DNA from: a virus
IMG/VR virus record: IMGVR_UViG_3300034377_000007
Coordinates: 1-64,000 of that record
Direction: 5' to 3' (one strand)
DNA: 64,000 nucleotides
Of the stretch, positions 3,350-55,154 are shown in pieces. The position numbers were made by a program, and so were the translations under genes. Within the stretch, counting starts at the first letter, position 1; every line of letters starts with the position of its first letter. Below the pieces are notes generated by a model that was given only the letters and a program-made list of their open reading frames with translations, had not been told where the DNA came from and made no database searches.

Positions 3350-3613
3350 TTAAGCTGCTCTCTCATCGCTATGCCCGCCATAAACATAGACCGCATCGTC
3401 TCCCTGCTCGCTCTGTAACAGATAAGACTCAATGGTGTAGGCTGGCACGCCTGCTGAATGGTTGCCGTGCAGCCGAGCTGCTGCATTTCTCAGCGCGGTA
3501 TCGGCTGGCGTGACTTTATACTCGACTGAAACGGGAAGATTTATTTGAACATCGCCCCGCTTTACGGCGACCTCTTTCCCGTCTAGAGGCCCTCCGACTA
3601 GCTTAGCTTTCAT
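3350..3613 (-). CDS. Hypothetical protein (87 aa)
   Basis: There is an ATGA overlap with the portal stop at 3610-3613. Confidence 0.55.
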   Translation of the reverse strand: MKAKLVGGPLDGKEVAVKRGDVQINLPVSVEYKVTPADTALRNAAARLHGNHSAGVPAYTIESYLLQSEQGDDAVYVYGGHSDERAA

Positions 3614-6558: not shown

Positions 6559-6908
6559 TCAAACCTCATCCCCGAATACTCTGCGATAACATCGCAGAGT
6601 TCTTTGCGTTGTGCTAACTCTTCGGTCCTCTGGCGGCACACCGCAATCATCATTCTGGCAATGTGCTTTCTCAACCAGGATAGTTCTTTCATTTCGGCAA
6701 TACGCTTTTGATATACAGCAATAAAGCATATCGCCACTCTGTATGTTTCCAGTTCTAGTTTTTCTCGCTCAAGGCGCTGCCGTCTGATAGAAGTGATTCT
6801 TGCTGCACGCGCCCGTATGGCGGGAAGACGAGCAATACGCATCTCCTCATCATAAAGCCCGTTATAAATATAGGGCGGCGTCCATTGCGTCTGAACAAAT
6901 TGGCTCAC
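6555..6908 (-). CDS. Hypothetical protein (117 aa)
   Basis: It is translationally coupled to terL through an overlap at 6905-6908. Confidence 0.55.
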   Translation of the reverse strand: MSQFVQTQWTPPYIYNGLYDEEMRIARLPAIRARAARITSIRRQRLEREKLELETYRVAICFIAVYQKRIAEMKELSWLRKHIARMMIAVCRQRTEELAQRKELCDVIAEYSGMRFE

Positions 6909-9289
6909 TTCCTCCTATACCTCCTATGGCTCACGGGCTGCCCAATCATCCTCCCGTACTGCTTAACAAGCTTCTCTTCTTCCTTACGCTCTTCCTGTTC
7001 AATCCGGCCAAGGGCGTGCTGCATGCCTGAGAGGAGTTCAGGGAACTCGGGAGTGCCGCGCTGGGACATGACCGCAACAGGCTTCAACTCGTCCGGCAGT
7101 TGGGAGATGCGGCGCTGTTCTCTGGTCAAGGCCGTAGCAGAGAGGGCGAAGTTGTAGAGCATCATGCGAACGCAATCTAAGGTCACGCCGCCATAGGGCT
7201 GCGGCTCCCCTTTGTCGTTATAGGCCCAGGTGATCGCCTCCTGCCGCATTGCGAGTTGTCCCGCATCGTTAAAGGGGGCGTCCAACTGAAGGCTGTCAAC
7301 CAGCAGATAACAGTGAGAAGCTTTCCATCTCGGATAAACGGGATGCCTCTGGTTCGGTATCTCCTGAAAATACCAGTTCGTCTCAGGTAGACCGGCTTCC
7401 GCGTCGTCCTCGAAGTATTGAAGATCAAGGCCGTACTTTTCTCCTGCGACCTGAACGATGTCGGAACTCCCCTTACTCAGCCAGATGAAACCGGCCTGCT
7501 CGACACCCTTCTCGCAGAACCTTTGCAGCGCGCGCCTGAGACCTTCCAAAATCTTCGCAGGCCCGTCCACGTACTCCCTGCCGGAAGCCACGACGAAGGC
7601 ACATTCTCCCAAGAAAGCGTCCTCCGCTGCGCGCGCTGTGATCGCCCAGCCGGAAGGATTGCTAGCATCTGAATCCACGCGGACGGCAGCGCTAACCTCC
7701 CAGTGTCCGGGGATTCGTGGGCCGAACCTTTCAGCGAATTCCATCCAACCGAACAGGCGGGGCTCGCTTTTGATGACCAAGCCTCTATAGAAAAGGTCTG
7801 TCAGGAACTTATGCCCGTCGCTCCCCGCGTCAATGATGTCCTTGGTCGAGCCGACGGGGAAGTTCTTATGCTCACTTTTGAAGGGCTTAAACCAGTCGGG
7901 CGTCGAGCCGTCCCTGTTGCGAACGATGAAGACCTTCCCCTTATTGAAATCCACGGAGTACGGATAAGCACGCATCTCCTTCGAGCCACTCACAGGATCA
8001 GTGAAGACCTGATACTCCCTGAGCATCTGGCGGAACTTGTAGGCAACGTCTTTACCTGCGGAGCCGGGGTCTTGCGGGGCATGAATTGCAACCAGCTTGC
8101 CGTCTCGCTCTGCGGTCGTCTTTTGCAGATTCTCGCGGTCAGCCGTGTTGACCTGCTTTCTCTCGCAGTCTTCAATGTAAATATTGGCAGAGGAGTCTAT
8201 ACCCATCCGAAGGCCGACGCTGTACGCACCTGCCCCCTCGGTCGCCGCGTTGTCCCAGGCTCTTACGCGGTGAAGAAGCTTAGGGACTTGATCAAAGTCA
8301 ATCTCCTTCAAGCACGAGACGTTGAAGAAGTCGCCCTCCTCAGAAGTAGGTCTGCCTTGAAACTGTGAATTCCAGACCTGAGCGTTCTTCTTCTGGCGCT
8401 CGTAGTAGACAGCCGTTCGACGTGGGGAAAGATACTCGCCCTTTTCACGGCCCAGTGGATCAGGAAATGATCTTCCAGATTCCTCGTCAACGTAATCCCC
8501 ATCGGCCTGAGCGGCGTAACGTAACAGTCCGAACTCGCCCGAGGCTATTGCACGTCCTCCCATGTCGTCCTGATGGTAACGGTGAAACATGATAAAGACG
8601 TTCCCGGTCTCAAGGATGCGGGGCTGCGCCGTCTCTTCGTAGAACCTCCATGTCTTGTCTCGGATCACCGGAGAGAGTGCTTCTTCGACCGATTTATAGG
8701 GGTCGTCAATGACGAGAGTATCAGCGCCCGTACCGACAAAGCCGGTCTGGAGTCCTAAAGCGATGAATGAGGCTTGCCCGTCGTTGACTTCCAACCTTGC
8801 GTTGGTTGACCACTCGACGGCTTTACTACGTTCTGGAATGTGCCCGGCGGGGTCACGGAATATCTCTTTATGCTCTGCTGACTGAAGAAGCCTCTTGACG
8901 ACGACGCTGAACCTCGCAGCGTGGAGGATGTTGTAGCAGGCCAGCCTGAATCTGTGCGTCGGGTCTTGCCCGAAGATGTAAGCAGGGTATGCCTGCGACA
9001 TGATGATGGTCTTGCCGAACTGCGGAGGGGCGGCGATGGTCTCACGCTTGCCGGGATGACGGAAAGCGTCTTCCAGACGAGCGCAGAGGTCTATCTGCCA
9101 GTCGTCAAGCTTGATGTGCTTGACGCGCTCGACGTACTCAGCCAATGTCAGGGTCGGCTTTTCGATAACGGTCTCCACACGTTCAGCGGCACGCCGACGG
9201 CGCTCGCGCTCTGCTTTTGCTCTCAGGCTGACGGGGATGTTACCCCCGCGCAAGCTGGTCAAGTTCTTCGTCGGTGAGTGTGCTAACAT
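6905..9289 (-). CDS. terL: Terminase large subunit with a long C-terminal extension (794 aa)
   Basis: It has a Walker A-like APPQFGKTIIMS and a Walker B-like TLVIDDPY. Nuclease-type acidic motifs are VRAWDNAAT, HAPQDPGSAGKD and DIIDAGSDG. It lies next to terS and the portal. Confidence 0.85.
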   Translation of the reverse strand: MLAHSPTKNLTSLRGGNIPVSLRAKAERERRRRAAERVETVIEKPTLTLAEYVERVKHIKLDDWQIDLCARLEDAFRHPGKRETIAAPPQFGKTIIMSQAYPAYIFGQDPTHRFRLACYNILHAARFSVVVKRLLQSAEHKEIFRDPAGHIPERSKAVEWSTNARLEVNDGQASFIALGLQTGFVGTGADTLVIDDPYKSVEEALSPVIRDKTWRFYEETAQPRILETGNVFIMFHRYHQDDMGGRAIASGEFGLLRYAAQADGDYVDEESGRSFPDPLGREKGEYLSPRRTAVYYERQKKNAQVWNSQFQGRPTSEEGDFFNVSCLKEIDFDQVPKLLHRVRAWDNAATEGAGAYSVGLRMGIDSSANIYIEDCERKQVNTADRENLQKTTAERDGKLVAIHAPQDPGSAGKDVAYKFRQMLREYQVFTDPVSGSKEMRAYPYSVDFNKGKVFIVRNRDGSTPDWFKPFKSEHKNFPVGSTKDIIDAGSDGHKFLTDLFYRGLVIKSEPRLFGWMEFAERFGPRIPGHWEVSAAVRVDSDASNPSGWAITARAAEDAFLGECAFVVASGREYVDGPAKILEGLRRALQRFCEKGVEQAGFIWLSKGSSDIVQVAGEKYGLDLQYFEDDAEAGLPETNWYFQEIPNQRHPVYPRWKASHCYLLVDSLQLDAPFNDAGQLAMRQEAITWAYNDKGEPQPYGGVTLDCVRMMLYNFALSATALTREQRRISQLPDELKPVAVMSQRGTPEFPELLSGMQHALGRIEQEERKEEEKLVKQYGRMIGQPVSHRRYRRK

Positions 9290-9668
9290 CTATCTTCAAT
9301 GTCGGGTTATAGAGCCCCGGTTTATGGGCTTTCAGTAGAAAGATGGTTAAGGTGTCGCTCTGCGCGCGTGCTCGTTCCCACGCAATCTCTTCAAGGCTCT
9401 CAACCGCTCTATCCTTCGCCTCATCGGCACGCTTGCGAAACTCCCCATAGTTCTCGTAATGGTCGTAGTAAGACCTACGCGGCACGCCTGCGGCCTCGCA
9501 CGCCGCCGAGATGTTGGCGTTCTGCTCGAAGGCCAAGATAAACGCATCATGCCAACCAAAATCAGGCTGCGGGACGGGCGGCTTATTGACCTCTTTTTTA
9601 GGTGTGCGAACAGGCGTTTTCTTCGCTCTGGCTTTCGCCGCCTTCTTTGTGGATTTCTTCGCGGCCAT
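9240..9668 (-). CDS. terS: Terminase small subunit
   Basis: It has a Lys-rich N-terminus, then an HTH-like NISAACEAAGVPRRSYYDHY segment typical of phage small terminases. It overlaps the terL start. Confidence 0.75.
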   Translation of the reverse strand: MAAKKSTKKAAKARAKKTPVRTPKKEVNKPPVPQPDFGWHDAFILAFEQNANISAACEAAGVPRRSYYDHYENYGEFRKRADEAKDRAVESLEEIAWERARAQSDTLTIFLLKAHKPGLYNPTLKIDVSTLTDEELDQLARG

Positions 9669-9870: not shown

Positions 9871-12800
9871 TTACTGATTTGCTCTCAATTCCTGCCGCCT
9901 GCGCTTCCTATCCTGAATCTTAGCTGCTCGTGCTCTCTTGATCTCCGCTCTCTCGGGATTGGCGGCGGCATCCAAAGCCTTACGGTCTTTCTCTTCCTGG
10001 CGCGCTTCCTTTTGCTCAAGGATGGGTTTAAGAGAGAGCTGCTCTGCCGGAGTAGCCAGACTGTAGACATGCCGCGCATCTTCGAGAGAAAGTAGTCGAA
10101 ACTTTTCTTGCAGATAGGTCTGACTTCTGGCTTTGATGATCGTCTCGCCCCTGTTCTCGTTGATGACGCCCGAGGCGACAAGAGGTATGACTTCACGAGA
10201 AACGTCCTCGCCACGCCGGGAGCGGGTTTTCAGTTCGTCAAGTTTGCGTAAAGTCTCCTGGTCGGGCTTCTTACTGGTCGCACGTTCCCCTTTGTAGACG
10301 AACCTCATTGCAAGCTTCTCCGCTCTGGTTTTCGGCTCGTCCGCTCGATCAGGATAGACGTTGGCGCTGAGTCCGACGGCTTCCGCTCCGGCCTGTGCAG
10401 CACCATAAGCAAAGCCCTCTTTTCTCCCGGTCTGGAAGAAGTTCTGATAAGTAATCGGAGTCAGCCTCGTGCCGATGGCCCCGTCTATTCCGTAATCTCC
10501 GAACCATGTGAAAGGCCGGCGGTCAAAGGTCTCCCCCGTGGCCGCTTCGATCATGAGGGAGGCGCGCGGGTCTGCGCCCGAGTGGAGCCAGCGGCCCATG
10601 ATGGAATCCGCCCCTTCGCCGATTACCTTATCAAAGGCCATCTGCCCTGTGACCTGTCCCGTCAATCCACGGTAAGCCTCCATCATCAGGCGGAGGACGG
10701 TTCTGGCATGTGTGGCGTTACCGGCTGAAAGATCAATACGAATCTTCCCGTATTTGAATTTCATCCAATCATCGTCGTCGGGGTCGAACAGGCTGATCAG
10801 CGCCTCGTTAGTAATCCACCCCAAAGTAGCTAGGGCTCCGAAAGTCGCAGCCATTGTCCCCCACCACCTTGCGGTATTCTTGTAGACGATTCTTCTGGCT
10901 TCGGGCGGCGCGTGCCAGAAGGAAGGGTTGAGAGGCAAGGTCAGGAATTGGAGACGAGAGACACGATACCGAGGCGCGAAGCCTATCATCCGTCCGAGTG
11001 CTAAATAAGCTTTCGTCGCTGCCGTGTTGTGGTCTCCGATGTCTGCCCTACCCGTGACGATGTTGATGAAACGTCCTACGTCCTTGTAGGCACGCGGGTT
11101 GTCTTTGTAGCCGACGCCTTTCGCTCTCAGCTCATCAATCCAGAGTTTTCCGAGTGCATGGCGGAGATGGTCTAAACCTCCGCCGAAGACCTGATCGGAC
11201 TTGCGCACGAACGTACCCAAGGTCTGCTTGATGATTGGAATTCTCTGTAGAACGTCGGCGTCCTCAAAGAACTCTTCGCCTTTATTCCCTCCGGCAAAAG
11301 AGAAATCTATGCCCATCCTCTGCATGAGCGGAAAGTCCGGGTCTTGCTCTATAACATCTATGTTTCGAGCAAACCCCGCGTCCCGGATGCTCGAAGTGGT
11401 GGCTTTGACGAACGCCGGGAATAGTTGAGGCTGCATGACTGAGGGGACGCCGCCCTGACGGAGCAAGTTCGAGACCTCGCCGGATGCCATCAAAGAGATT
11501 GGGATGCCTTTCGATGCGCGCCATGCTGTGCCGACGATACGTTGCGCAGGACTCTTTTTGAGGGCGTCCAACTCTCTCGCTACCCGCCTCCCGGCTTCCT
11601 GCCTGGCACGACGGGCTTCCTGTAGGGAAGCCAGAGCCTGGTCGCGCTCCGTCTCGGTTGAAGCCACATGCTTTTTAAGGGCTGCGGCCATCTCTCGGGA
11701 TGCGGTGACCTCTGCGCGGGCACGCTCTAAGACCTCCCCGCCGGACATGAAGGCCGTACGGGCTTCTGTAGCGGTCAATCCATGATCCGCCATCATCTCG
11801 GAGACGAGATGGCCGGGTGAGAGTCCGCGAGAGAGTTTGGTGGCCGCAATCGCATCTATGTGAGTCAAGGCGTTACGAGCAATAGCCCGGTCAAGCGCCG
11901 TTGGCTTCGGCGGGCCACTCTTCACGCCTTCTGAAAGCAGTGGGCCGGGCCTGCGCTTGAGGTCTTCACCAAGACGTGGACCTTCCTTTTTGCCCGTGGC
12001 ATCGGAGAGACGTGGGCCATACTTAGGGCCAAGCTTCGCGCGCAGTCCGGCGATTCTTCCCGGCTTCGGCCCCTTCTCAAACTCTCTTGCGGCCTTTTCA
12101 TGCTCAGCCTGTACGGCTGCGAGGCGCTTGCGCTCTTCTCTCTCTTCCCGGTAAATGTCCTCTAATTCATCGCGGCTCAGTTCTTCGTTGCCGGGGCGCT
12201 CCGATATTCTCCGGATAGCACGATCATGACGTGCCTGCCGAATGGTCTGGCGAGCGAGTTTCACCGATTTGGCGTGGATGCGGTCAAGGTCTGATGAGAT
12301 ACCGCGCCCGAAGTCCGAAAGCATGACTCTCTTCCATGCCGAGACGGAGAGGCGGCCCCTCTCTGCACGAAGGAGTTTTAATGCTCCGAGTTTGGCGAGA
12401 TTGTCTATAGTATCTTCGTCGAGAGGGCGGACGGACTCTTCCACCTGTGCCATCTTGAGAAGATGTGAGGAATTGGATTGCGCCGCACTTGTCGGCGCAT
12501 CACTCGGTTTTGAGCCTTCTGCAAATACTACGTTGGTTGGGTCAAATACAACGACATGGCTACCCCGCTCTTTTAGATGCTTACCAAGTTCTTTTGTGGG
12601 GTTGTAAATAACGCCGTCATAGCCGAGATTACGAAGGACTTTTTGGAGTTCCGCCGCGCCCCTCCAAGGTTTGAAACCCGCTCGAACGGCATACTCCACA
12701 GCCTGACCGGACAAAGGCTTTGAGGTATCCGCTTCGATGTGGCCCAAGTTACGTTCAATGTTTGACAATAAGTAGCTGTCACTCCCAACTGCGCGCTTCA

Positions 12801-15800
12801 AATCCTCTAAAGTGACCGTTGAGATATCTGGTCTAAATGGGTTTTCTAGGTTGGCAAATAATTTTAATACCCGCGCGCCCTCCTTCGACACATTTCTATC
12901 TGGATGATCTGTTGCATATTTAGAAGCATCCTTTTCACTGGTCGTCAGATAGACGGCGCGACCGTAAGAGGCTTCGGGGTCGGCCTTGGTCAAATCAAAC
13001 GCCTCTACCGCTCCCGTTGTTCCATGATAGAGCGTCACCGGGTTGCCACGTCTGTCCGTCAACTTTGTGTTGGGGTAAGCACGCTTGAACCGTGAGACTG
13101 CGTCTTCAATTTCCAGGCGGCCTGATGTCCCTGTTTGCCCTTCCGCCTCTTTTCCAGACATCAGTTCGGGCTGACGTTCGGACATGGGCGGCATTTTATC
13201 ACGACGCGCCATCTTGAGCGGCACGTCTCCCAGACCCAGAGACGCGCGCACGCTCGCCATCAAATCGGCCTCGTCAACAGCCAACAATTCAACGGCTTTA
13301 CGTTTGACGGAAATCCCGGAGCGCGGCTTCCTCGCCCTTTCAGGCAACAAGCCTTCGAGTTCTTTAAGACGATCTTCCCGGCGTTTCTCTTTATCACGAA
13401 GAGAGGCGAGGCGCTTCCTCAGAGTGTCAATCTCCGCCATCGTGAGAGCACCCTCTTCGGCCCATCCTATGAGTTTTCTTGACTGTTCTACTTCTGCGCG
13501 GGCTCCGCTCGCTTCCGCTCCCGCGACTGCCAGAACGGCAGAAGCGGATTCTAATTCTTCGCCCGCACGGTGAATTCGTGCAGCCTCTTTCTCCGATAGC
13601 TCTCTTCCTCTTTCACGCGCGACTCTGGCAGCCGTAGCCATCACGTCTTCTACGGAGTTATCTGCAATTTGGGCAGCCTGAATAGCCTGTCCTGCTTTGG
13701 TGAAGGCTGCGGCTAAAGTAGAGGCGAGGGCTTCCGCTCTGGCTCGTAGGGCGGAAGCTTCCTCGGCGTCTATCGTCGCAAACGCTTCGCTGAGCAACGC
13801 CCTTTGCATCATCTTGGACAATGCGATGTGCTCTGCTCCGAGCGCCTGGCCTGATTTTAGAAGGGATTCTGCGGCGTCAAAGCCTATTTGCTCAAGGAGA
13901 CGCTTACCGTCAAGAAGAGCGGCTTTGTTGGGATAGACTTCGTAGAGTTCGTCGGCGGCGCGAAGTCCCTGCGTGCGTAAGGTGGATGGAAGTGCGCGCG
14001 CTCTTACTTCCCGCGCTTCGCCTTCTGCTCCTGAAGGAACTTCTTTATCTCTTCCCTGCGTTCCGCCTCCGGGAGATTCTGCAACCCTTCTGCCAGCTTG
14101 ATCGCTTTCCCTAAGTGCCGACGATTCCCCGTCGGCTTGGGAGCTATTATAAGCCCTCTTCGCGTTTTCAATGGCTTGTCTGACATGGCTCTCCTGTCTC
14201 TTGAATTCACTGAAAGCATTAGGCCCGTTGCGCTCTATGAATGAACGCGTCCAGAGTTCGAGATAATTGGCGGCCTCTTCATCCGAGAGGCCGAGTTTAG
14301 CATAATCTCCCCCGGCTATCGTGGCCGCAGTCTCCTCAATAGCCAATCCACGAGAAGCATTCATGTACTCGCGGGTTGAGCTGTAGTAGTTTCGCCACGC
14401 GGAGACTGCCGGGTGCGATTCCAATTCTTCAATCTTCGTATGACGATCTTCGAGGACTCTTCCTTCCGCCCCGAGGTAGCTTCCGGCGTGGAACGATTCG
14501 TGTGGCTCCGCTGCTGCGGGAGCGTCTTTGAATTTAATAACCGCTGTGCCTTTTCCCTCTCGGGCGGCGTCAAGAAGATTCCCGGCAAGATCGTTTAAAG
14601 GTTTGACATCATCACTCGACCAACCCATCTCAGGGTCGCGCATGTCCCTGGCTGTTCCCTGCAAGGTCTTAACGATCATTCGCACCTGGGACGGCTCAAG
14701 GAATAGTCCGTCAAGGGTTGGAGCGTCTTCGAGGTCTTGAACTTTAGAGACCAGAGCGCGGCGTATGACTTCTCCACCTTCGGCGTTGACGGTGACGATG
14801 TTTTCTTCGCGTGCAGAAGAGGCTGACGGGATGAAGTCGGAGGCGTGTTCAATAGTGCGGAGGCGGCTTTGCTCAACGCTCGCCATCTTGAGAATGTTTG
14901 GGTCGGACAGCGAGAATGTGCCACGGTTGCCTGTGGCTGATTTGATCTGGTCAGGATGCAAGACCATCACACGGTCGCTATCAGCACTATAAACACCATC
15001 ATAGCCTTCGCTGATTAGCCTGCCCCTGATGGCGTCCTGCCATGTCTCGCCACTTTTTAGTGAGTAATTTCGGTATAGGTCTGCTTCTATGCGGTCAAGT
15101 GCCGTGGGCGTTATTGGTTTTTCAATCCTAACGAACACTGGCATGATAGTGCCATCGTTAGGCCGTCCAACCGCGCGAGCGTAATCGTTTCCAAGGGCAT
15201 ATTCTGCGGCCTTATCAGGATTCTTGGATAGGTATATGCCCTTACCCCAAGAGCCAGAATCAGTCTGCCCGAATTTAGATAAATCAAACTCAGTGAAATC
15301 AGCAAGCGTGCCGTGATAAACGACGAGCGGCCTGCCCTGCCCGTCAACTACCTTTGAGCCAGCAAACCACCGCTTAAATTCTGGGGTGTCCGTGATCTTC
15401 TTTATTGCTGCCTGTGCCATCTTGAGCGGGCCATCACCAAATAGACCGTTCAACTCGTTGGCAATTTCCTGTGTGCCAGGCTGTTCGATCAATCCACTTG
15501 GCAGCTTTCCTGTTCGATCAATCTCAGCAAGTAGTCTCTCTTGCTCAGAGGTCAAATCCTTTTCACCGACGAGCATCGGCTGGTTGACGTAATCGGAAAC
15601 AGGAGTGCTTGAGCGGTCAAGCTCCGCGAGCTTTGAGGGGGCGGGGAGGGTGTCGGCGAGCACCTCAGTATCAACGCGGTCAGCCGACTTGACGACCTGC
15701 GAAGCGAGGCGGCGTACGCGCGGTGGGACATCATCTTCCTGCAATCCCGCAAGGGTTGCGACGTTGTCCTTCCCCAGCGAGCGCTCTAGTTCCTTCTCTT

Positions 15801-18800
15801 TATAATAACGCTCGGCGTATTCTCTTTCCTCTCTGGTGGTGTTAGGTGGCGGCTCGAATCTCTCGACAGGGCGCGCGCCGCCTTCGGCAAACAAACCGCT
15901 CTCAGCTTCACGGAAGCCTAAGCCTCCCTGTTCGGGTTGGTAGTAGTCGGAGAGTTTACGGGATGATTGAGGCGCGCCGTTCTCGCCGAAGTCGAAGCTT
16001 GTATCCGCTTCCCCCTCCGGCTCCGTCTCGTCTATTACTTCTTCTGCAAATATTGCTGGTTCGCTTTGCGGAAGAAGAGCATCTGATGAGGCTTCATCCT
16101 GAGACGCGAGGCGAGCGAGCGCAATTTCTCTAAGCGAGCGGAGTGTGATGCCGATGAGTTCTTCGTCGAGTCCATAAGTTGCACCTATTGTAACAAGGTC
16201 ATCGTAGATTTGGGAAGATATTTCGCCCGTCCGTTCGATCTCCGCGAGCATCTCCGCAGCGTCTTTGTCCTGCATGAAACGCGCTTCACGCTCAAGCAGT
16301 TTTTCCTCTTCGGCTGAGACCTCGCCTAAAGCTGCTATCTCTTCAAAGATGGGGTTCTCTGTCGAGAGGTGGCTTGCTATGCCGCGCGCGTCGTTCTCTA
16401 CGGCTTCAAGGAATTTATCAGGGTCAACGTAGCCGTACTCAGCATCGGTCACGATGTCGGGGATGTCTCGTAGATACCCGGCATCATAAGCAGCCTGCGC
16501 CATCTGCTCGACGGTGAAGCGAGAATTTTTATTGACGAGGAATGGCTTGCCGAGTTCCTTCTGTGACAGACGTTTTAATTCTTCACCTTCGCCCTTGACG
16601 CCGCCAGATAATTGAACGAAGCGCCTGAGCGAATGCTTTTTAGGGTCGGGGGCTTGACGCTGGCGCGGCTTGCGGTTGGCAGCCTTATCAATCTTGGCCT
16701 GCCGTTTCCGCTCCGCTCTTGTTTGCCGGGAAGCGGTCAGAGGCTTCAAAGCTTGGGGTACTTCAATCGCAGGATGTGCTAAATCACTTTTCGCTGTGGG
16801 GGTAGATACGGGTTGCTGAGATTGCAAGGCCGTTCTCTTAGTTGCGAGTTCAGCTATTTCCTTGTCAACCAAAGCCAGCGTGGTTTTGTATCTGTTCGGG
16901 CGCGGAGATTGAAGCTGGCGCGCAAACATACTTTGCAGGTCTTTCTTTTGCCGCCCTAACTGCACTTGTCGGCTATCGAGCTTTGACAACTCGCGCTCGG
17001 CCACCTCTGTCTGAATCTGCGCCTCTGGCTTTAAAAGTTCCTTTAACTCTCGTTCAATAGCAAACACCCGTAACAGCGTGTTTTGCTGGTGACGTTTCTG
17101 CCGTTCAGAGGTGCGCGCCCACTGGTCAGGCAGCACTAAAGAGGGGTCAATGTAGTGTAGCCCTTGATATTCATGAATCAGTTCAGAGGCACGTTGACGC
17201 TTCTCCACCGGCAAAGCGTTGAACGCTTCTGGTCGTACCACCGTCTGACGTACTACGGCACTCTTATCAAGCGTTGGCTCTTTTATTGCAGTGGTGGGTG
17301 TAGTCTCCGCATTCTGCGACGCTTGCACCTGATCTTCTTCAGCCTGTGGAGCATTGGACTCCTTCGGGGCAATCCTGAGCCCCTGGCGTGTGCGGACGGG
17401 AACCATGATGCGGTTTCCCTCGCCTCGTCCGTTGGACTGTTGAACGATGTGCTCCGTGCCTTGATCGTCGGTTACTCGTACGCGATTCTGTCCTACTCCT
17501 GATTGATTGGAGCTTTCGGTGACGAGGCCAAAGTCAGCATGTCGCCATTGACGTGGGGGTTGAGTCTCAGAGGCGGCGGGTAGACTATCTGCGCTCCGTT
17601 CTCGTCCATCACCCACGCGAAGAGTATTCCCCTCGGCTGTTGGGCGTAGGAGTTCTGTCTGTCCAGCCTGCGGCCCATCTCCTCTTGGTGCGCCTGCACT
17701 AACTTGGAAATCTCTTCGCACTCCGCTTGCGCCATCCGAGCTACGAGCTTTGCCGCCTCTGCTATCTGTTCCTGCGTTAGACTCTGATAGGCCATTTTCC
17801 TCTACTCTCCTTTGTGCTGCTTCCTGCGCTGACAGTAATTCCTGATTCGCGGTCTGCGGGAATTGCCGCCGGTCAACTTCGGCCTGTGCAATAGCATCTG
17901 CCTCTGTTGGCACAATCGAAGTAGACAGTTCTCGCCCTTCCGCATCTTCTGTTCTGAGAGCTGGCCCAACACTTGTGTCTGTTACAGGTGCAACTTTTCC
18001 GATTAAAGGCTCGAAGCCGTTTTGAGCAACATAGTCCTGAATAGACTTGATACTTGTGAGCCCCATCGCCCGCGCTTTCGTCCTCTTGACGAGCAAGAGC
18101 CCATCGGGGACGGGAACGCGTATGAAGCCGGTCGTGCCGCCCGGTTCAGGTGAAGATTTCGGATAGAAGACGGCGACGCGGGGGGAGTTCTCGTCTCTAG
18201 CGCTTTCAAGCTGCGCTTCAATGGTCTGAGACGACTCGGGCACGGGCGCGGCGTCCGTCTCCGATGGCTGCGGCAGCAACGCCTCTTCCGCGCCGTTCAC
18301 CCGCGCCTCCGACGCTCCCTCCGTGCCTCTGGCCGCCGCCGGAGCGTCCCCTTCGGCGCTCTGCGTCCCTTTCCAGACGTAGACGGGTTGACCGTGGCGC
18401 ACGTCGCGCACGTAGCCTTCCGGTATCTCTATGGAATAGGTATCAATGATGCGTGCGTCTAAAGTAGCCCGGCGCTTGATTCCGGCCTGTATCGCTTTTA
18501 ACGCTTCGGGCTGAATCGCGGGACGGGCAGATTCGTCAACGGCGATTCGATCAAGCTTGACGAGGCGGACATTTCCATCGTCGCCGCGAACGCGGGAGAA
18601 TCCCTCGGGGGCTTCACCTTCCGCCCGTAACCTTTGCCCGTCTTCGGGCGTCAGTTCTTCGACCGTGCCGCCCCTGACCGTGCCCTGTGTATCGGTGAAG
18701 GTGACGGGCTGCGCAGGTTTCGGCTGCCGAACCGTTGAAGGTTGAGCATTCTCAGCCTGCCCTTCGACGCTGGTGGCGGGCGCTATCTGGTCAGGCAAGG

Positions 18801-20943
18801 CATCAGACGATAAACCCTCGTCCGCCGGTTCCGTGTTTGCCCGCGCCGCTTCGCTGGAACCTCTGTGAATACGCCCGCCGTGACTGCCCGTTGCTGCGCT
18901 GACGATGGCAGAGAAGAGGGCGCCGGTCGCGCCGCCCGCTCCCGCAGCCGAGTAGATGCCGTCCGTCCATTCGCGCGACTTGTCGTAACCGACGATCTTC
19001 CTGGCTATTACATTGCCCGCCGCCGTCTGGAAAAACTCCTGTACGCTCTCCTCGAAGGTCTCCTTGCCCATCTCGATGAGAGCTTTCTTGAGCGTGCCCC
19101 CGCTGATCCTATCCAGACGACGAAGCGCGGTGCCGACACCAGCCACCTCCGAGGCACCGACGCCGCCGTTTAAGAGAGCCGAGAGGGTCGCATCGTCCTC
19201 ATTTGCTCCATGCCGCTTGGCATCCCTGTAGCCTTCCGACATCCCCATCGTGACGCCGAGCAGGGCCGGGACGACGTATGCCGATTTACTGATGAGCCCG
19301 CCGGATGCGAACCCGACGGCAGAGCCGATGGCCTGCGGAATCGTGGAGGCGATAAACTCCTCCTGCCTTGCGGGGTCGGTCGGGTAATGACGCCGCGCAG
19401 CTTCGCGGATAGCCTGCGCCCATTGGGCCGTGACCAAATCCGCCGCCTGGCTGGCGTCCCTGTAGGATTGCAGACCTTCGGGCAAGTGCCTGTCTATGTT
19501 GTAGGCAGTGATGGCTATAGCATCAAGAACCCCTGCCGGCATCTCGGCCACACCGGACAGGAACTGCCCGAACGCGTGCGCGCTGGTCGAAATGGGCTCA
19601 CTACCCACTCGTGCCCTGATACGCGGAGCGGAAGCTCGCGCCCGTGTCTCCTCTTCCGACTCGATGCGCCCTTCCGGCGAGAGCGTGCCGCCCTGCTGGA
19701 TATGGGCGATCTGAGCTGGTTGGAGGCCGAGGCGGCGCAGGGCTTCGGGTCTGACCTCTCGAATCTCCCCGCCTGAACCTAAGCCCCGCTCGCGTAGACG
19801 CTCCCCGACGGGCGCAAGTCCCGGCCCCTGTCGGTTCATTTCCTGTTCGATGGCTGCACGACGCTGCATGTAAGCATCGTCCGAACGGCGCACGTCGGCG
19901 ATGCTCGGCCTCTCTCTTTGCAGGCGCTCATATTCAGCTTTCGCCGCTGCGTATTCCTGCGCCTGCTGGTCGGCAAAGGTTGGGGCGAGCAGGCCGCCGA
20001 ACTCGGGGTCAACCGGCCTCTCGGTCAACTTCCGCCGTGCACGCTCCATGCGTGTGCGCGCTCTCTCCACCTGTCGCCTGCGTGTGCGCTGTGCGGCTCT
20101 CTGCCCCCGTCTCTGCTGCATTAGTGAGACCGCCTGCTGGTTGACCTGATCTATGGCAAGCGGATGATCGCGCCATCTCGCCTGTTCGGCTAACAGCTCG
20201 GGACTTGCAGGGGAGAACTCGTCTCCTTCACGCTCAGCCGGGGGTATGCGAGGGGACTGCACAGCCCGGGTTTCAGGCTGTGCAGTTTGCGTAGCAGAGG
20301 CGGTCGGCGGGACGCTGTTTAGCCGGATGAGTTCTTCGGGAGTGATCTTGTAAGTCCTGGCTATCTGCTCTAACGTATCCCCTTCGTGGGCGATGATATG
20401 GATGACTCCTTCGCCTGCCCAGTTCGGAACGGCAACCTCTTCTCCGCTTTTGAAGATGCGCGTGGGGGCCTGCTGCGTAGCGAAGTCAATCTCGGGCCTC
20501 GGCGTGAGCGACTGTCCGATCAAAGTAGGGCTGTAAGTCGGCATCGCCGCGCCGAGGCCCGGCCCGCGCCCTCCCGGCGGGCCGACGTGGATATGAGGAG
20601 CGGTGGATTTGCCCGGAACGGCTTTATCCCAAACCGTGTGCGGTATGCCCTGCCCCTTCAGCCATTCGGCGATCCACCGTACCTGCTCGGGTGTTTCACC
20701 CTGATTGATGCCGATGTCGAATCGCCCCTCGTGGGGGATGCCCATGCGGCGGTGGGTCTCGTCGTTGCCGAAGGAAGAGACGCGGATGTCCTTGCCGAAG
20801 ACGGAGCGATAGGCTTGGTTGAGGCGGTCGCGCACGTCCGCGGGGTCGAATGAGAGGCCCGGGGTGCTGCGGGCAGGCTTCGCCACGTCCGAGAAATCAA
20901 TCTCTTCCGGCCTGGCTGCATCTGAGAAGTCGATAACAGACAT
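9871..20943 (-). CDS. Giant multidomain polyvalent-type protein (3690 aa), probably virion-packaged and injected
   Basis: It is an uninterrupted 11-kb ORF upstream of terS. The domains seen by eye are listed as separate features below. Confidence 0.9.
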   Translation of the reverse strand: MSVIDFSDAARPEEIDFSDVAKPARSTPGLSFDPADVRDRLNQAYRSVFGKDIRVSSFGNDETHRRMGIPHEGRFDIGINQGETPEQVRWIAEWLKGQGIPHTVWDKAVPGKSTAPHIHVGPPGGRGPGLGAAMPTYSPTLIGQSLTPRPEIDFATQQAPTRIFKSGEEVAVPNWAGEGVIHIIAHEGDTLEQIARTYKITPEELIRLNSVPPTASATQTAQPETRAVQSPRIPPAEREGDEFSPASPELLAEQARWRDHPLAIDQVNQQAVSLMQQRRGQRAAQRTRRRQVERARTRMERARRKLTERPVDPEFGGLLAPTFADQQAQEYAAAKAEYERLQRERPSIADVRRSDDAYMQRRAAIEQEMNRQGPGLAPVGERLRERGLGSGGEIREVRPEALRRLGLQPAQIAHIQQGGTLSPEGRIESEEETRARASAPRIRARVGSEPISTSAHAFGQFLSGVAEMPAGVLDAIAITAYNIDRHLPEGLQSYRDASQAADLVTAQWAQAIREAARRHYPTDPARQEEFIASTIPQAIGSAVGFASGGLISKSAYVVPALLGVTMGMSEGYRDAKRHGANEDDATLSALLNGGVGASEVAGVGTALRRLDRISGGTLKKALIEMGKETFEESVQEFFQTAAGNVIARKIVGYDKSREWTDGIYSAAGAGGATGALFSAIVSAATGSHGGRIHRGSSEAARANTEPADEGLSSDALPDQIAPATSVEGQAENAQPSTVRQPKPAQPVTFTDTQGTVRGGTVEELTPEDGQRLRAEGEAPEGFSRVRGDDGNVRLVKLDRIAVDESARPAIQPEALKAIQAGIKRRATLDARIIDTYSIEIPEGYVRDVRHGQPVYVWKGTQSAEGDAPAAARGTEGASEARVNGAEEALLPQPSETDAAPVPESSQTIEAQLESARDENSPRVAVFYPKSSPEPGGTTGFIRVPVPDGLLLVKRTKARAMGLTSIKSIQDYVAQNGFEPLIGKVAPVTDTSVGPALRTEDAEGRELSTSIVPTEADAIAQAEVDRRQFPQTANQELLSAQEAAQRRVEENGLSESNAGTDSRGGKARSSDGASGVRRDFQVSAGAPRGDGPQAGQTELLRPTAEGNTLRVGDGRERSADSLPAASETQPPRQWRHADFGLVTESSNQSGVGQNRVRVTDDQGTEHIVQQSNGRGEGNRIMVPVRTRQGLRIAPKESNAPQAEEDQVQASQNAETTPTTAIKEPTLDKSAVVRQTVVRPEAFNALPVEKRQRASELIHEYQGLHYIDPSLVLPDQWARTSERQKRHQQNTLLRVFAIERELKELLKPEAQIQTEVAERELSKLDSRQVQLGRQKKDLQSMFARQLQSPRPNRYKTTLALVDKEIAELATKRTALQSQQPVSTPTAKSDLAHPAIEVPQALKPLTASRQTRAERKRQAKIDKAANRKPRQRQAPDPKKHSLRRFVQLSGGVKGEGEELKRLSQKELGKPFLVNKNSRFTVEQMAQAAYDAGYLRDIPDIVTDAEYGYVDPDKFLEAVENDARGIASHLSTENPIFEEIAALGEVSAEEEKLLEREARFMQDKDAAEMLAEIERTGEISSQIYDDLVTIGATYGLDEELIGITLRSLREIALARLASQDEASSDALLPQSEPAIFAEEVIDETEPEGEADTSFDFGENGAPQSSRKLSDYYQPEQGGLGFREAESGLFAEGGARPVERFEPPPNTTREEREYAERYYKEKELERSLGKDNVATLAGLQEDDVPPRVRRLASQVVKSADRVDTEVLADTLPAPSKLAELDRSSTPVSDYVNQPMLVGEKDLTSEQERLLAEIDRTGKLPSGLIEQPGTQEIANELNGLFGDGPLKMAQAAIKKITDTPEFKRWFAGSKVVDGQGRPLVVYHGTLADFTEFDLSKFGQTDSGSWGKGIYLSKNPDKAAEYALGNDYARAVGRPNDGTIMPVFVRIEKPITPTALDRIEADLYRNYSLKSGETWQDAIRGRLISEGYDGVYSADSDRVMVLHPDQIKSATGNRGTFSLSDPNILKMASVEQSRLRTIEHASDFIPSASSAREENIVTVNAEGGEVIRRALVSKVQDLEDAPTLDGLFLEPSQVRMIVKTLQGTARDMRDPEMGWSSDDVKPLNDLAGNLLDAAREGKGTAVIKFKDAPAAAEPHESFHAGSYLGAEGRVLEDRHTKIEELESHPAVSAWRNYYSSTREYMNASRGLAIEETAATIAGGDYAKLGLSDEEAANYLELWTRSFIERNGPNAFSEFKRQESHVRQAIENAKRAYNSSQADGESSALRESDQAGRRVAESPGGGTQGRDKEVPSGAEGEAREVRARALPSTLRTQGLRAADELYEVYPNKAALLDGKRLLEQIGFDAAESLLKSGQALGAEHIALSKMMQRALLSEAFATIDAEEASALRARAEALASTLAAAFTKAGQAIQAAQIADNSVEDVMATAARVARERGRELSEKEAARIHRAGEELESASAVLAVAGAEASGARAEVEQSRKLIGWAEEGALTMAEIDTLRKRLASLRDKEKRREDRLKELEGLLPERARKPRSGISVKRKAVELLAVDEADLMASVRASLGLGDVPLKMARRDKMPPMSERQPELMSGKEAEGQTGTSGRLEIEDAVSRFKRAYPNTKLTDRRGNPVTLYHGTTGAVEAFDLTKADPEASYGRAVYLTTSEKDASKYATDHPDRNVSKEGARVLKLFANLENPFRPDISTVTLEDLKRAVGSDSYLLSNIERNLGHIEADTSKPLSGQAVEYAVRAGFKPWRGAAELQKVLRNLGYDGVIYNPTKELGKHLKERGSHVVVFDPTNVVFAEGSKPSDAPTSAAQSNSSHLLKMAQVEESVRPLDEDTIDNLAKLGALKLLRAERGRLSVSAWKRVMLSDFGRGISSDLDRIHAKSVKLARQTIRQARHDRAIRRISERPGNEELSRDELEDIYREEREERKRLAAVQAEHEKAAREFEKGPKPGRIAGLRAKLGPKYGPRLSDATGKKEGPRLGEDLKRRPGPLLSEGVKSGPPKPTALDRAIARNALTHIDAIAATKLSRGLSPGHLVSEMMADHGLTATEARTAFMSGGEVLERARAEVTASREMAAALKKHVASTETERDQALASLQEARRARQEAGRRVARELDALKKSPAQRIVGTAWRASKGIPISLMASGEVSNLLRQGGVPSVMQPQLFPAFVKATTSSIRDAGFARNIDVIEQDPDFPLMQRMGIDFSFAGGNKGEEFFEDADVLQRIPIIKQTLGTFVRKSDQVFGGGLDHLRHALGKLWIDELRAKGVGYKDNPRAYKDVGRFINIVTGRADIGDHNTAATKAYLALGRMIGFAPRYRVSRLQFLTLPLNPSFWHAPPEARRIVYKNTARWWGTMAATFGALATLGWITNEALISLFDPDDDDWMKFKYGKIRIDLSAGNATHARTVLRLMMEAYRGLTGQVTGQMAFDKVIGEGADSIMGRWLHSGADPRASLMIEAATGETFDRRPFTWFGDYGIDGAIGTRLTPITYQNFFQTGRKEGFAYGAAQAGAEAVGLSANVYPDRADEPKTRAEKLAMRFVYKGERATSKKPDQETLRKLDELKTRSRRGEDVSREVIPLVASGVINENRGETIIKARSQTYLQEKFRLLSLEDARHVYSLATPAEQLSLKPILEQKEARQEEKDRKALDAAANPERAEIKRARAAKIQDRKRRRQELRANQ
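10790..10866 (-). other. Hydrophobic (TM-like) segment near the C-terminus of the giant protein
   Basis: The segment is WWGTMAATFGALATLGWITNEALISLF. Confidence 0.4.
12449..13218 (-). other. ART-like module 2 of the giant protein
   Basis: RRGNPVTLYHGT...YGRAVYLT...ASKYA...GYDGVIYN...HVVVFDP is a paralogous copy of module 1. Confidence 0.55.
14488..14502 (-). other. HEXXH (HESFH) zincin-type metal-binding motif in the giant protein
   Basis: PHESFHAG lies between the two ART-like modules. Confidence 0.5.
14882..15426 (-). other. ART-like module 1 of the giant protein
   Basis: FKRWFAGSKVVDGQGRPLVVYHGT...WGKGIYLS...AAEYA...GYDGVY...QIKSATGNRGTF resembles the ADP-ribosyltransferase-like domain of phage polyvalent proteins, as I remember it. 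Confidence 0.6.
20308..20403 (-). other. LysM-like peptidoglycan-binding motif of the giant protein
   Basis: HEGDTLEQIARTYKITPEELIRLNSV matches the LysM core (GDTL..IA..Y.....L...N). Confidence 0.65.
20581..20781 (-). other. LAS-type zinc peptidase-like segment of the giant protein
   Basis: The pattern IPHEGRFDIGI ... APHIHVG fits the H-x(n)-D ... H-x-H metal-ligand pattern of LAS / M15-type cell-wall peptidases. Confidence 0.5.
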
Positions 20944-20958: not shown

Positions 20959-22089
20959 CTAATCCTGAATCGTGTAACCCTGCCGGACGGCTTCTTTCGC
21001 CACATCCTCCGGCAGCATGTTCAGAGCCTTCGCCTTCTGCACGACGGCATCCGAGCTGATCGTTTTTCCCGCGCCAGGATATCTCTGGGAGAACTGGTCT
21101 CTCGACATCTGCACGCGGTCTCTCTGGATGGCGGCAGACTGGGCGGCTATCTCCTTCTGCGCCTCTATTCTCCACCTGGCGATGCGCTCACGAGACTCTC
21201 TCGCCGCAGCCTGCGTCTCCTGGTTCATCGCTTGTGGTGTCGTGGTCGTTAATTGCCCATTCCCCCCGGGAGCGTTAACGGGCGCGGACTGGTCGCCTCT
21301 GAGCACATACCACGCTCCCGTGCGGGCGTCCTGTTTATAAGTAGCCTTTTCACCCTTCTTCTTGGCGATGACTGGTAGACCAAGCTCCCTCAAATCCGCA
21401 ACGGTCCGAGCATTCCCGGGGTCGTCCGGGTCGAACTCTTCGAGGTCGTTGATGACGGAGGCGACGGCGCGACGGCGTTGATCGAGGGCGCGGGCCCTGT
21501 CGGCTTCCTCCTTCCTACGCTGCTCCGTGTCCCGGTAGGTCGGCATATCCCGCTGGTTCGCAGCCTGCGCTCGTTTCAATTCCAGCTCGGCTTCGTTCTG
21601 CTCGCTCTCCTGGCTCATCTTCGATATCCCGGCCTGGCGCGCGATGTCCCGATTGTGGGCGATCTGTTCATCTGCCGCCGGGTTCAGGAGCCCCATAAGA
21701 GCGTTACTCAGCCTCTGGCCTATCAAGTTCCCCAGGGAATCGGACGGTCGTACAGGCTGGCCCGCCATCGCAAGCGCAGACATCCCGCGACCGTTCACGT
21801 CCACGACCCCCTGGCTCATAAGCTGCTGCAATCGCTCGGTCGGGTTCAGCGGGTTCGCTTCCCCCGGTGTTCCTGTGACGAGTCGAGGGCGCGTTGCTGC
21901 GTAAGTCGGACGAGGAGAAACCGTCTCCTGCTCAAGTGCTGGGTCTACGTCGAAGACCGGAGGGGCATAGGTCGGGTAATCCGTACGGGGTGCTGTGGTA
22001 TCATCTTCTGCCGTATAAGTGTAGCTAGGCACGATGCGCGGCAGTGGCACGTAGCTTGGGCCTCTTCTTCTATGCTGTGTAGATGTCAT
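20959..22089 (-). CDS. Hypothetical protein (376 aa), Pro-rich N-terminus and coiled-coil centre
   Basis: It is a complete ORF directly upstream of the giant gene and could be an internal virion or ejection protein on position alone. Confidence 0.6.
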   Translation of the reverse strand: MTSTQHRRRGPSYVPLPRIVPSYTYTAEDDTTAPRTDYPTYAPPVFDVDPALEQETVSPRPTYAATRPRLVTGTPGEANPLNPTERLQQLMSQGVVDVNGRGMSALAMAGQPVRPSDSLGNLIGQRLSNALMGLLNPAADEQIAHNRDIARQAGISKMSQESEQNEAELELKRAQAANQRDMPTYRDTEQRRKEEADRARALDQRRRAVASVINDLEEFDPDDPGNARTVADLRELGLPVIAKKKGEKATYKQDARTGAWYVLRGDQSAPVNAPGGNGQLTTTTPQAMNQETQAAARESRERIARWRIEAQKEIAAQSAAIQRDRVQMSRDQFSQRYPGAGKTISSDAVVQKAKALNMLPEDVAKEAVRQGYTIQD

Positions 22090-53149: not shown

Positions 53150-53165
53150 TTTATCACCTCTTTCA

Positions 53166-53459
53166 TCACGGCCCTTCGGACAGGTCGAAATTGACGTGCA
53201 GCACAACGGGAGCGCCTGAGTCGTTACGGACATATCGGTTGCTGGTCATCACGCGCCCGTCTTCCACACGCTGCTCCGCCAGAAGGGGGAAATCATACTC
53301 AGTGGCGGTCATGCTTTTGCCGCCGACCTTTATCCCGTCGCTTTCCGCGTAGTAGCGGAGCTTTGCGAAACTCGGCACGAAGTAGCCGGGGACGCGAGCC
53401 TGTTCGAGTGAATAAATATCGCGGTTAGTACCGTCAGCGGGTATCGTATAAGTAGGCAT
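53166..53459 (-). CDS. Hypothetical protein (97 aa)
   Basis: The start is at MPTYTIPADG, with a GGAGGTGG RBS. Confidence 0.55.
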   Translation of the reverse strand: MPTYTIPADGTNRDIYSLEQARVPGYFVPSFAKLRYYAESDGIKVGGKSMTATEYDFPLLAEQRVEDGRVMTSNRYVRNDSGAPVVLHVNFDLSEGP

Positions 53460-53481
53460 TGCCACCTCCGTTAGCTGCAAA

Positions 53482-55092: not shown

Positions 55093-55154
55093 CGTTCCCT
55101 CTATCCTGAAATCGGGCAAAGAAAAAGCGCCGCTACTCCGTCAGCAGTAAATCT

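Follow-up and report, generated by a model that had tools for sequence, protein, structure and literature searches.

A giant cysteine-free protein of predicted polyvalent type, encoded upstream of the terminase genes in a phage genome from IMG/VR

The stretch of DNA analysed here, hereafter the window, comprises 64,000 nucleotides of a viral genome (IMG/VR record IMGVR_UViG_3300034377_000007, positions 1 to 64,000) and carries on its minus strand an open reading frame (ORF) of 11 kb (9871..20943) for a protein of 3690 amino acids (aa), here called the giant protein. A reading of the letters alone, hereafter the original prediction, had taken this single ORF for a polyvalent-type giant protein encoded next to packaging genes. 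Both parts of this claim are borne out: the ORF runs from an ATG through 3690 codons with zero internal stops and has colinear relatives elsewhere, and the type agrees with its ART-PolyVal domains, with the domain repertoire of its relatives and with the head and packaging context. Judged from these features, the giant protein is probably a phage polyvalent protein that acts as a virion-packaged ejection and effector protein. The original prediction had likewise suggested an effector that is packaged in the capsid and injected, and the results of all tests made here agree with this suggestion. Its gene is the first large gene of a run that continues into terS, TerL and a portal-sized gene.

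An identical 3690-aa gene is called on the Logan contig SRR10953302_22715 (62.7 kb, run SRR10953302). This contig is 100% identical to the window across their overlap and may thus derive from the same data, so that it provides no independent proof. The stronger argument for the reality of the ORF comes from alignment with colinear relatives of 3491-5871 aa in other samples, which share the internal module order of the giant protein; one of them, P0003 (SRR19627835), lies in a fully syntenic genome (locus L023). The ends of the window are bridged, in an alignment with the Logan contig, by a stretch of 4043 bp (L010:16151-20193), and the window therefore covers 64 kb out of the ~68,043 bp of a genome that is circular or circularly permuted. 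No near-identical DNA was found in phage or plasmid collections. The features of the giant gene, in the order of its protein, are as follows.

9871..20943, minus strand: whole giant ORF, 3690 aa, cysteine-free
20866..20937, minus strand: tandem "IDFSD" motif, aa 3-26, VIDFSDAARPEE / IDFSDVAKPARS
20569..20841, minus strand: H-x4-D ... H-x-H domain, aa ~35-125, putative metal-dependent murein hydrolase head
20266..20403, minus strand: partial LysM-like segment, aa ~181-226, with Pfam LysM and weak PDB LysM matches
18883..19572, minus strand: five Gly/Ala-rich, moderately hydrophobic segments, aa 458-687, with Kyte-Doolittle peaks of 1.1-1.4, kept in ~14 relatives
17314..18246, minus strand: conserved domain of no assigned function, aa ~900-1210, 45-62% identical in P0003, P0005-P0008, P0010 and P0011
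15409..16707, minus strand: helical region, aa ~1413-1845, matching P0008 and P0011
15415..15426, minus strand: LKMA no. 1, aa 1840-1843, border before ART module 1, encoded by CTCAAGATGGC
14914..15345, minus strand: ART-PolyVal module 1, aa 1867-2010, called from full-length PF18760, PHROG and tblastn matches and catalytic residues
14881..14892, minus strand: LKMA no. 2, aa 2018-2021, border of ART module 1 and mid module, encoded by CTCAAGATGGC
13219..14880, minus strand: mid module, aa 2022-2575, an N-subdomain bearing an [H/E/Q]-E-x-x-H site plus a C-subdomain that is helical, present in 37 of ~150 relatives
14488..14502, minus strand: HESFH, aa 2148-2152, between both ART modules
13207..13218, minus strand: LKMA no. 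3, aa 2576-2579, border of mid module and ART module 2, encoded by CTCAAGATGGC
12544..13086, minus strand: ART-PolyVal module 2, aa ~2620-2800, called from the second PF18760 stretch and DUF3990
12448..12459, minus strand: LKMA no. 4, aa 2829-2832, border of ART module 2 and C region, encoded by CTCAAGATGGC
11557..12447, minus strand: helical, charged region ahead of the C module, aa 2833-3129, aligned in relatives within high-scoring segment pairs at query positions 2829-3687
10084..11556, minus strand: C-terminal module (C module), aa 3130-3620, all-alpha, with strongly conserved TGRG, DPDDDD-(F/W)-LK and AEKLA motifs and a hydrophobic helix at aa 3360-3387
9874..10083, minus strand: highly basic helical C-terminal tail, aa 3621-3690, delimited by sequence and composition

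The two ADP-ribosyltransferase (ART)-like modules claimed by the original prediction are confirmed. Pfam ART-PolyVal (PF18760) matches the giant protein in two stretches at E=1.3e-41 and 143.1 bits, far above the cut-off of 31.2, and the best stretch, aa 1867-2010, covers positions 1-140 of the 140 in the profile. DUF3990 matches aa 2637-2686, and the YHGT, G(I/V)YL(S/T) and GYDG motifs are present in both modules. All PHROG matches of the giant protein are confined to the ART region, which was also the only region to match cultured and deposited phages in tblastn, namely at ART regions of phage proteins; the N-terminal half had zero matches there. ART-PolyVal belongs to a clade related to Tox-ART-HYD2. 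Its active site is built from an H in strand 1, a Y in strand 2 and a D in strand 5 (PMC5512222), and these residues are found as H1877/Y1904/D1982 in module 1 and H2640/Y2665/D2776 in module 2, so that both modules are predicted to be catalytically intact. The modules share 30% identity over 91 aa (E=4e-13). Such a low identity indicates old paralogues, and a recent tandem duplication was ruled out on this ground. Among relatives, the pairing of ART module 1 with a mid module after it recurs, and the mid and C regions are contiguous in P0003, P0005, P0006, P0008 and P0013, which marks ART module 2 as an insertion in the giant protein. To our knowledge, nobody has yet shown biochemically which target an ART-PolyVal domain modifies.

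The N-terminus opens with the tandem IDFSD motif, which is common to P0005, P0006, P0008, P0010, P0011, P0032 and P0074; ~ten close relatives have it, often in two copies. In the domain that follows, H71, D76, H117 and H119 are invariant in five of five aligned homologous domains (the homologues are an outside protein, P0001, and the family members P0107, P0066 and P0011), and a G-K-S-T-A-P-H-I-H-V-G-like motif is also kept. The original prediction had recognised here a LAS-type peptidase-like motif (HEGRFD...HIH). The motif itself stands, by its conserved ligands and its position, and the peptidase family is not supported by sequence matches: the domain with four homologues gave no Pfam match at E<=10 and, as a profile, no PDB sequence match, and NCBIfam peptidase families had no match at E<=0.1 in the whole giant protein. 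A word-indexed search returned one match for the N-terminal 243 aa and none for the HESFH region. The relatives, whose N-termini typically begin with MPD.. and continue into a murein hydrolase, carry SLT, M23 or M15-like heads at the position of the H-x4-D/HxH domain, and the syntenic P0003 has Peptidase_M23 there. By a crude motif count, 68 of 102 full-length members have an N-terminal wall-hydrolase motif, the head types counted being 46 SLT-like, 13 M15-like, 3 M23-like, 5 of a GDVGRE type and 3 of the giant protein's own type. This positional equivalence with the hydrolase heads of relatives is the best evidence that the putative H-x4-D/HxH head attacks the cell wall.

The LysM that had been proposed next to this head is above the cut-off (PF01476, E=1.3e-4, 22.3 bits vs a cut-off of 20.9) and at the same time marginal, with positions 5-29 of the 43 in the profile covered and the C-terminal part of the profile unmatched. 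The hydrophobic segment that had been placed in the C-terminal part is found there as one moderate segment (aa 3360-3387), although the larger cluster lies at aa 458-687. Neither the conserved domain at aa ~900-1210 nor the helical region at aa ~1413-1845 has a Pfam or a PDB match. Pfam searches at E<=10 with six excised segments of the giant protein returned nothing meaningful, and PDB sequence searches, with single sequences and three profiles, gave nothing beyond the weak LysM matches.

The mid module was aligned in 37 homologues, in which E2149 is conserved at 97%, H2152 at 100%, R2167 at 97% and E2204 at 100%, whereas 9 of the 37 have E or Q in place of H2148. An AlphaFold model built with 13 sequences has a mean predicted local distance difference test score (pLDDT) of 77, and the N-subdomain is mostly above 88 per block of 10 residues. 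In this model, a beta-strand precedes the E-x-x-H helix and E2204 is placed on a later helix, a modelled topology that is compatible with a zincin. However, a Foldseek search of the fold against the PDB gave nothing below E=0.28, no PDB sequence matched, and none of 13 members had a Pfam match. Of the zincin motif that had been proposed to lie between the two ARTs, therefore, the motif and its location are confirmed and the zincin assignment is not, the first His being variable and no hidden Markov model (HMM) or fold match being found. Measured against an invariant HExxH with a third ligand, the site departs at the first position, which is H, E or Q, and the zincin is accordingly a lead and not a finding.

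The C module extends the giant protein into a large family. With its C-terminal 701 aa as query, an exhaustive HMMER search returned 2266 cluster representatives at E<=1e-3, with 805 at <=1e-10 and 88 at <=1e-30, and the match almost always lies at the very C-terminal end of a protein of 900-6951 aa. Comparison of the giant protein with the best 150 of the 2266 representatives defines, by alignment, a constant chassis that consists of the mid module (aa ~2020-2575) and of the helical region with the C module (aa ~2833-3620). Short family members of ~1000-1100 aa have little beyond the C module. Pfam scans of 14 relatives, all of which have the C module, found no family shared among their matches; the repertoire includes SLT (5/14), ART-PolyVal (3/14), 2H phosphoesterase (3/14) and M23 (2/14), together with a methylase with SNF2 or Sno helicases, InPase, GGDEF, topoisomerase IB, ParB and GNAT. 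MuF_C occurs in 1 of these 14; the giant protein has no MuF match, and a MuF fusion was rejected for it. The AlphaFold model of the C module (pLDDT 75, predicted template-modelling score 0.72) has no significant PDB fold match, and there was no PDB sequence match. Its BFVD matches are uncultured-phage proteins labelled "Large polyvalent protein associated domain-containing" or "ART-PolyVal-like", with a weak match (probability 0.16) to "Internal virion protein D" of Roseobacter phage CRP-5. At BLAST sensitivity, with P0047 as a typical C-module query, the family is nearly absent from deposited phage genomes (one uncultured record); a profile search of genome contigs with a narrow alignment found four loci, in Acidobacteriota and Rhodothermales metagenome-assembled genomes, and a metagenome scan found one short locus.

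The borders of the modules are marked by a short peptide. LKMA occurs four times in the giant protein, at aa 1840, 2018, 2576 and 2829, vs ~0.025 expected (P~2e-8). The same 11-mer, CTCAAGATGGC, encodes four of the four copies and is absent from the rest of the 64 kb, and the junction in L023 uses the identical 11-mer. In relatives, LKMA is found at the matching borders of BLAST segments with the consensus [GAS]-P-L-K-M-A-[RQ]-[PA]-E (27 sites in 15 proteins), and the family total is 43 vs 7.3 expected. Among the real genes of the window, of the 4-kb gap and of L023, the peptide is confined to the giant gene; it is therefore not a general prohead-protease site, and this candidate was ruled out. 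The placement at borders suggests either cleavage of polyprotein type or cassette exchange. Iyer et al. postulated that polyvalent proteins are processed into units, and they did not name the sites (PMC5512222).

The giant protein has no cysteine in 3690 aa vs ~44 expected (1.19% in the other genes of the window; P~7e-20). This avoidance is family-wide, with 29 Cys per 323,514 residues in 154 family sequences and 133 of the 154 proteins without any. It is also seen in proteins of other phages that are known to be ejected. N4 virion RNA polymerase (vRNAP) gp50 (L024:10524-21026) has 0 Cys in 3500 residues vs 1.13% in neighbouring genes, and T7 gp15 and gp16 (L025:9326-15552) have 0 in 747 and 0 in 1318, respectively, vs 0.5-2.2% in the other T7 structural proteins sampled (gp8, gp10A-gp14 and gp17). 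phi24B gp47 (L012:49-8472), for which ejection has been proposed, has 2 in 2807, each of them among its first 13 residues. Likewise, the product of the gene just upstream of the giant gene lacks Cys in 8 of 9 loci compared (one Cys in L016) and in L023. In the window, this gene encodes a 376-aa product (20959-22089, minus strand), which shares with the L023 partner (L023:8760-10001) a C-terminal motif, YPGAGK.I....V..AK...MLP.D......QGYTI.D, that is looser in L016, L018, L020 and L007. The upstream partner proteins also share Gly-rich hydrophobic patches. The 376-aa Cys-free gene may encode a partner ejection protein, and Cys depletion may be a general compositional signature of proteins that traverse the tail; among the results listed by a literature search, no report of ejection proteins free of cysteine turned up. 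If the rule were general, it would allow a cheap prediction of ejected phage proteins from nothing more than their sequence.

The genes of the run to which the giant gene belongs are as follows, in order along the minus strand.

20959..22089, minus strand: 376 aa, Cys-free, upstream partner of the giant gene, candidate second ejection protein
9871..20943, minus strand: giant gene, 3690 aa
between the giant gene and terS, in the minus-strand run: 49-aa product
9240..9668, minus strand: 142 aa, probable terS, overlapping the start of TerL; the syntenic L023 gene matches Pfam Terminase_2
6905..9289, minus strand: 794 aa, TerL, phrog_38 at E=5.8e-59 and five further TerL PHROGs
between TerL and the 846-aa gene, in the minus-strand run: 117-aa and 131-aa products
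3610..6150, minus strand: 846 aa, portal-sized, noted for size, position and conserved synteny
after the 846-aa gene, in the minus-strand run: small genes
next in the minus-strand run: 475-aa and 449-aa products
63835..49933, minus strand: long run, reached by wrapping round the window, probably tail genes

The original prediction had placed the giant gene beside terS, terL and the portal. TerL is secured by phrog_38, terS is probable by synteny, and the portal is a candidate by position only: family libraries gave zero matches for the 846-aa protein, whose identity is 53% to the product of the syntenic 852-aa gene in L023 and 24% to its counterpart in L014. The giant gene is probably co-transcribed with the packaging and head genes; a scan for promoters and terminators around it found sites no more numerous than in shuffled sequence. 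In L023, the order is a 413-aa partner, the giant gene with its Peptidase_M23 head, a 213-aa Terminase_2 gene, a 707-aa TerL, and genes of 852, 480 and 452 aa, the last being 67% identical to the 449-aa gene of the window's genome. This 449-aa gene, which lies in the 4043-bp gap (L010:16151-20193) with several smaller genes, probably encodes the major capsid protein (MCP). In the IMG/VR relatives L015, L016, L018 and L021 (contigs of 67-75 kb) and the shorter L014 and L017, the giant gene is followed by an ORF of ~700 aa, and in L014-L018/L021 by an ORF of ~790-880 aa next to it where the locus reaches that far. The ~700-aa ORFs of L014-L018 are homologous to each other and have weak terminase matches; the large (~790-880-aa) ORFs of L015, L016 and L018 are homologous to each other, and that of L014 matches the 846-aa protein of the window. 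Shorter family members are found at other places of the head module. L003 has the order TerL, 560, 87, 358, family member, 264, MCP, with the member between the portal-sized gene and the MCP gene, and in MW202497 the member comes after the MCP and a "phage stabilization protein", a position at which P22-like phages keep their ejection proteins. In every related locus examined, the giant-family gene lies within head or packaging modules.

Several observations concern the rest of the genome. The window TerL (6905-9289) has only 37% identity over 100 aa to the TerL of L023 (L023:21115-23238), and by sequence the large terminase of the window is not orthologous to that of the relatives (L023, L014-L018). 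The divergence of TerL, while the portal-sized (53%) and capsid-like (67%) genes are kept, suggests a replacement of the terminase within a conserved late module. After the head genes, 15 co-oriented ORFs of <=604 aa lie on the minus strand at 49933-63835, none of them of tape-measure size. Comparison of six of these ORFs with PHROGs and four with Pfam gave no meaningful match, and the run presumably contains tail genes of an undescribed type. A 152-aa protein encoded in the head-gene run (L010:17635-18093, in the 4-kb gap) has a sub-threshold match to the Acb2/Tad1 hairpin (E=0.02), and a gene with an Acb3 match lies upstream in L023 (L023:1-120); these two may be anti-CBASS/anti-Thoeris sponges. 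Genes for replication and regulation form a block with two O-like genes for replication initiators (27848-28675; 43334-44344), one ParB-like gene at 28676-29572, one for a DNA methyltransferase at 30192-30935 and one for a protein with tetratricopeptide repeats and a Fis-type helix-turn-helix (31919-32893). The G+C content is 0.62-0.63 at 18001-22000 vs 0.47-0.60 elsewhere in the window, and this stretch coincides with the low-complexity N-terminal quarter of the giant gene, which is rich in Ala, Gly, Pro and Arg, and with the upstream partner gene. No tRNA genes were found in the 64-kb window.

If the giant protein is a virion-packaged ejection and effector protein, its action can be pictured as follows. 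The protein would be incorporated into the procapsid and, at infection, would exit before the DNA or together with it, via the portal and tail channel, as an extended chain like beads on a string; the lack of cysteine would fit both unfolded passage and exposure to an oxidising periplasm. The H-x4-D...H-x-H domain with the partial LysM would lead and open the peptidoglycan, and membranes may be touched or entered by the segments at aa 458-687 and by the C module's hydrophobic helix. Both H-Y-D ART modules would reach the cytoplasm and ADP-ribosylate targets of the host in the service of take-over or anti-defence. The mid and C modules would serve as the constant chassis needed for incorporation, for the conduit or for both. 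PLKMA at the module borders would most simply be a processing site of polyprotein type, at which the E-x-x-H...E site of the mid module may cut to free the ART modules. Packaging, ejection, wall cleavage, processing, and the activity and targets of the ARTs are what we infer; directly observed are the domain content, the catalytic residues, the architecture of the family, the synteny, the depletion of cysteine and the junction motif.

Several points weigh against this picture. The N-terminal domain has no link by HMM or structure to a peptidase family, and its H-x4-D spacing is atypical when compared with that of the metal ligands in M23 (H-x3-D) and M15 (H-x6-D). No 19-residue Kyte-Doolittle mean reaches 1.4 and there is no confident transmembrane helix. 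Neither for the mid module nor for the C module did Pfam, PHROGs or the PDB give a match of known function, and the roles in encapsidation or in an ejectosome given to them here are guesses. A recombination joint is an equally possible explanation of LKMA, all copies of which share one 11-mer. In L002, a distant TerL relative, the 10 kb upstream of the TerL gene contain no giant gene, and the tail genes, from which the type of the virion would be read, are without any family match.

Three other explanations compete with this picture. It is unlikely, though by no means far-fetched, that the giant protein is mainly a structural ejectosome or internal-core protein, resembling T7 gp16 or an N4 gp50 without its polymerase, which would build a trans-envelope DNA conduit and for which the ARTs would be dispensable. 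The constants of the family are indeed the hydrolase head, the mid module and the C module, the effectors being variable or absent (P0003 has no ART match); the members of ~1000-1100 aa are little more than a C module, the upstream partner is Cys-free just as gp15 and gp16 are in the T7 ejection set, and the weak BFVD match is to an internal virion protein of CRP-5. However, no solved structure, including any entries for T7 ejection proteins present in the PDB, gave a fold match, and the ARTs keep H-Y-D and are thus under selection; besides, this explanation overlaps with the preferred one and differs from it in emphasis alone. A multi-effector that is made late, is not packaged and stays in the infected cell to modify components of the host or of rival phages appears very improbable. 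T4 ModA and ModB are ARTs that act unpackaged (PMC5512222), but a wall-hydrolase head with a LysM-like segment makes little sense in the cytoplasm, and neither the position of the gene in head or packaging modules at every locus examined nor the family-wide avoidance of Cys, as in ejected proteins, would be expected of such a protein.

We give still less credence to a tape-measure-like tail protein, or to a polyvalent protein that a conjugative element encodes and a type IV secretion system (T4SS) delivers. Long helices, Gly-rich hydrophobic segments and murein hydrolase domains are found together in tape measures as well, and there were very weak BFVD matches of this kind (probability <0.1), but the giant gene lies upstream of terS/TerL and outside the tail-like run, and 3690 aa would imply a tail of about half a micrometre; this identity was rejected for its wrong gene module and the negligible BFVD matches. 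Similarly, ~40% of polyvalent proteins are found on conjugative elements (PMC5512222), whereas the replicon here is a circular phage genome of ~68 kb with a terminase, and the scanned ORFs of the window matched no T4SS or relaxase family; being encoded by a phage, the giant protein was rejected as a conjugative-element protein. Within the preferred reading of an ejected effector, it is tentatively suggested that the giant protein is a self-processing polyprotein cut at LKMA after ejection, or belongs to an undescribed family for ejectosome or encapsidation functions (mid module, C module and Cys-free partner), or both. As a polyprotein, its E-x-x-H...E module could cut the PLKMA sites encoded by CTCAAGATGGC and release the ART cassettes, and the junctions could double as microhomology joints for swaps of effector cassettes. 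As a family, it could comprise more than 2000 protein clusters, almost entirely from uncultured phages, with several relatives on viral contigs of 67-75 kb.

Among known systems, the closest is the class of phage polyvalent proteins described by Iyer et al. in 2017 (J Bacteriol; PMC5512222), which likewise have a giant multi-domain chain with a terminase and a portal-sized gene alongside. By its sequence, the giant protein is a member of this class: in 3690 aa, it unites two ART-PolyVal domains, a LysM-like segment, a metal-site domain and at least four further conserved modules, and the phage packaging context comprises TerL directly downstream, the circular ~68-kb genome and synteny in L023 and L014-L021. 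Shared with the class are H-Y-D ART-PolyVal in more than one copy, a putative domain for attack on the wall and the domain repertoire of relatives, and packaging in the capsid with delivery alongside the DNA is predicted for both. The original prediction had singled out the duplicated ART with a wall-degrading head as worth characterising as a device for anti-defence or host takeover. Up to 12 ART copies in a single chain, and peptidoglycan-cleaving domains in polyvalent proteins, have already been published (PMC5512222), so that the combination is not surprising. Unlike the class, in which a zincin-like MPTase is common without being obligatory, the giant protein matched no LPD or MPTase family of Pfam, and its mid and C modules are without a Pfam or PHROG match. 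In the main text of Iyer et al. the word "cysteine" does not occur, and no cleavage or junction motif was found described there (PMC5512222). A second member, the 2811-aa gp47 of phi24B, is present in virions by proteomics and has been proposed as an ejection protein that extends the tail conduit (bioRxiv 10.64898/2026.04.10.717836). It resembles the giant protein as a giant polyvalent phage protein that is almost Cys-free, but lacks the mid and C modules (profile scores insignificant), has LPD5, LPD1, LPD38 and MuF-C, none of which is matched in the giant protein, and is encoded at the far end of the late region and not upstream of terS.

Ejected proteins without the polyvalent domains provide looser parallels. 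For N4 vRNAP, domains arranged as beads on a string have been proposed to permit passage through a channel of ~35 A (PMC13434306), and gp50's domains at the N- and C-terminus are reportedly required for injection and encapsidation, respectively (PMC4496689, with reference to unpublished data). With 3500 aa and 0 Cys, gp50 is similar in size and composition, and it is packaged and ejected as the giant protein would be; the giant protein differs in having no polymerase match and in carrying ART cargo, and the mid and C profiles do not match gp50. An N4-type vRNAP was rejected for the giant protein, whose Pfam and PHROG matches are to ART and LysM only, with no polymerase module. T7 gp16 (internal virion protein D) has a murein hydrolase ("endolysin") domain at its N-terminus and is ejected to form a DNA conduit with partner ejection proteins, gp14 and gp15, and both gp15 and gp16 are Cys-free. 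The giant protein, which is three times longer and has enzymatic effectors, shows no detectable homology to gp16, so that the resemblance is by analogy a functional one. T4 Alt, P1 DarB and DdrB are enzymes that the head carries and that are injected together with the DNA to modify host targets or protect the DNA; P1 DdrB undergoes proteolytic processing, for which its own MPTase is possibly responsible (PMC5512222). The clade of Alt among the ARTs is R-S-E (PMC5512222), whereas the ARTs of the giant protein are of the H-Y-D type, and Alt and the Dar proteins are of ordinary size, without the chassis modules of the giant protein.

Taken alone, the giant gene is thus one more well-formed example of a class known since 2017. 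More use may lie in the surrounding family, which combines a constant chassis with the absence of Cys and with a motif that delimits effector cassettes. If LKMA is a cleavage site, it offers a testable handle on the question raised in 2017 of how polyvalent proteins are cut into units. Compared with the systems above, what is less charted is the uncharacterised chassis common to thousands of uncultured-phage proteins, together with the cysteine rule and the junction motif.

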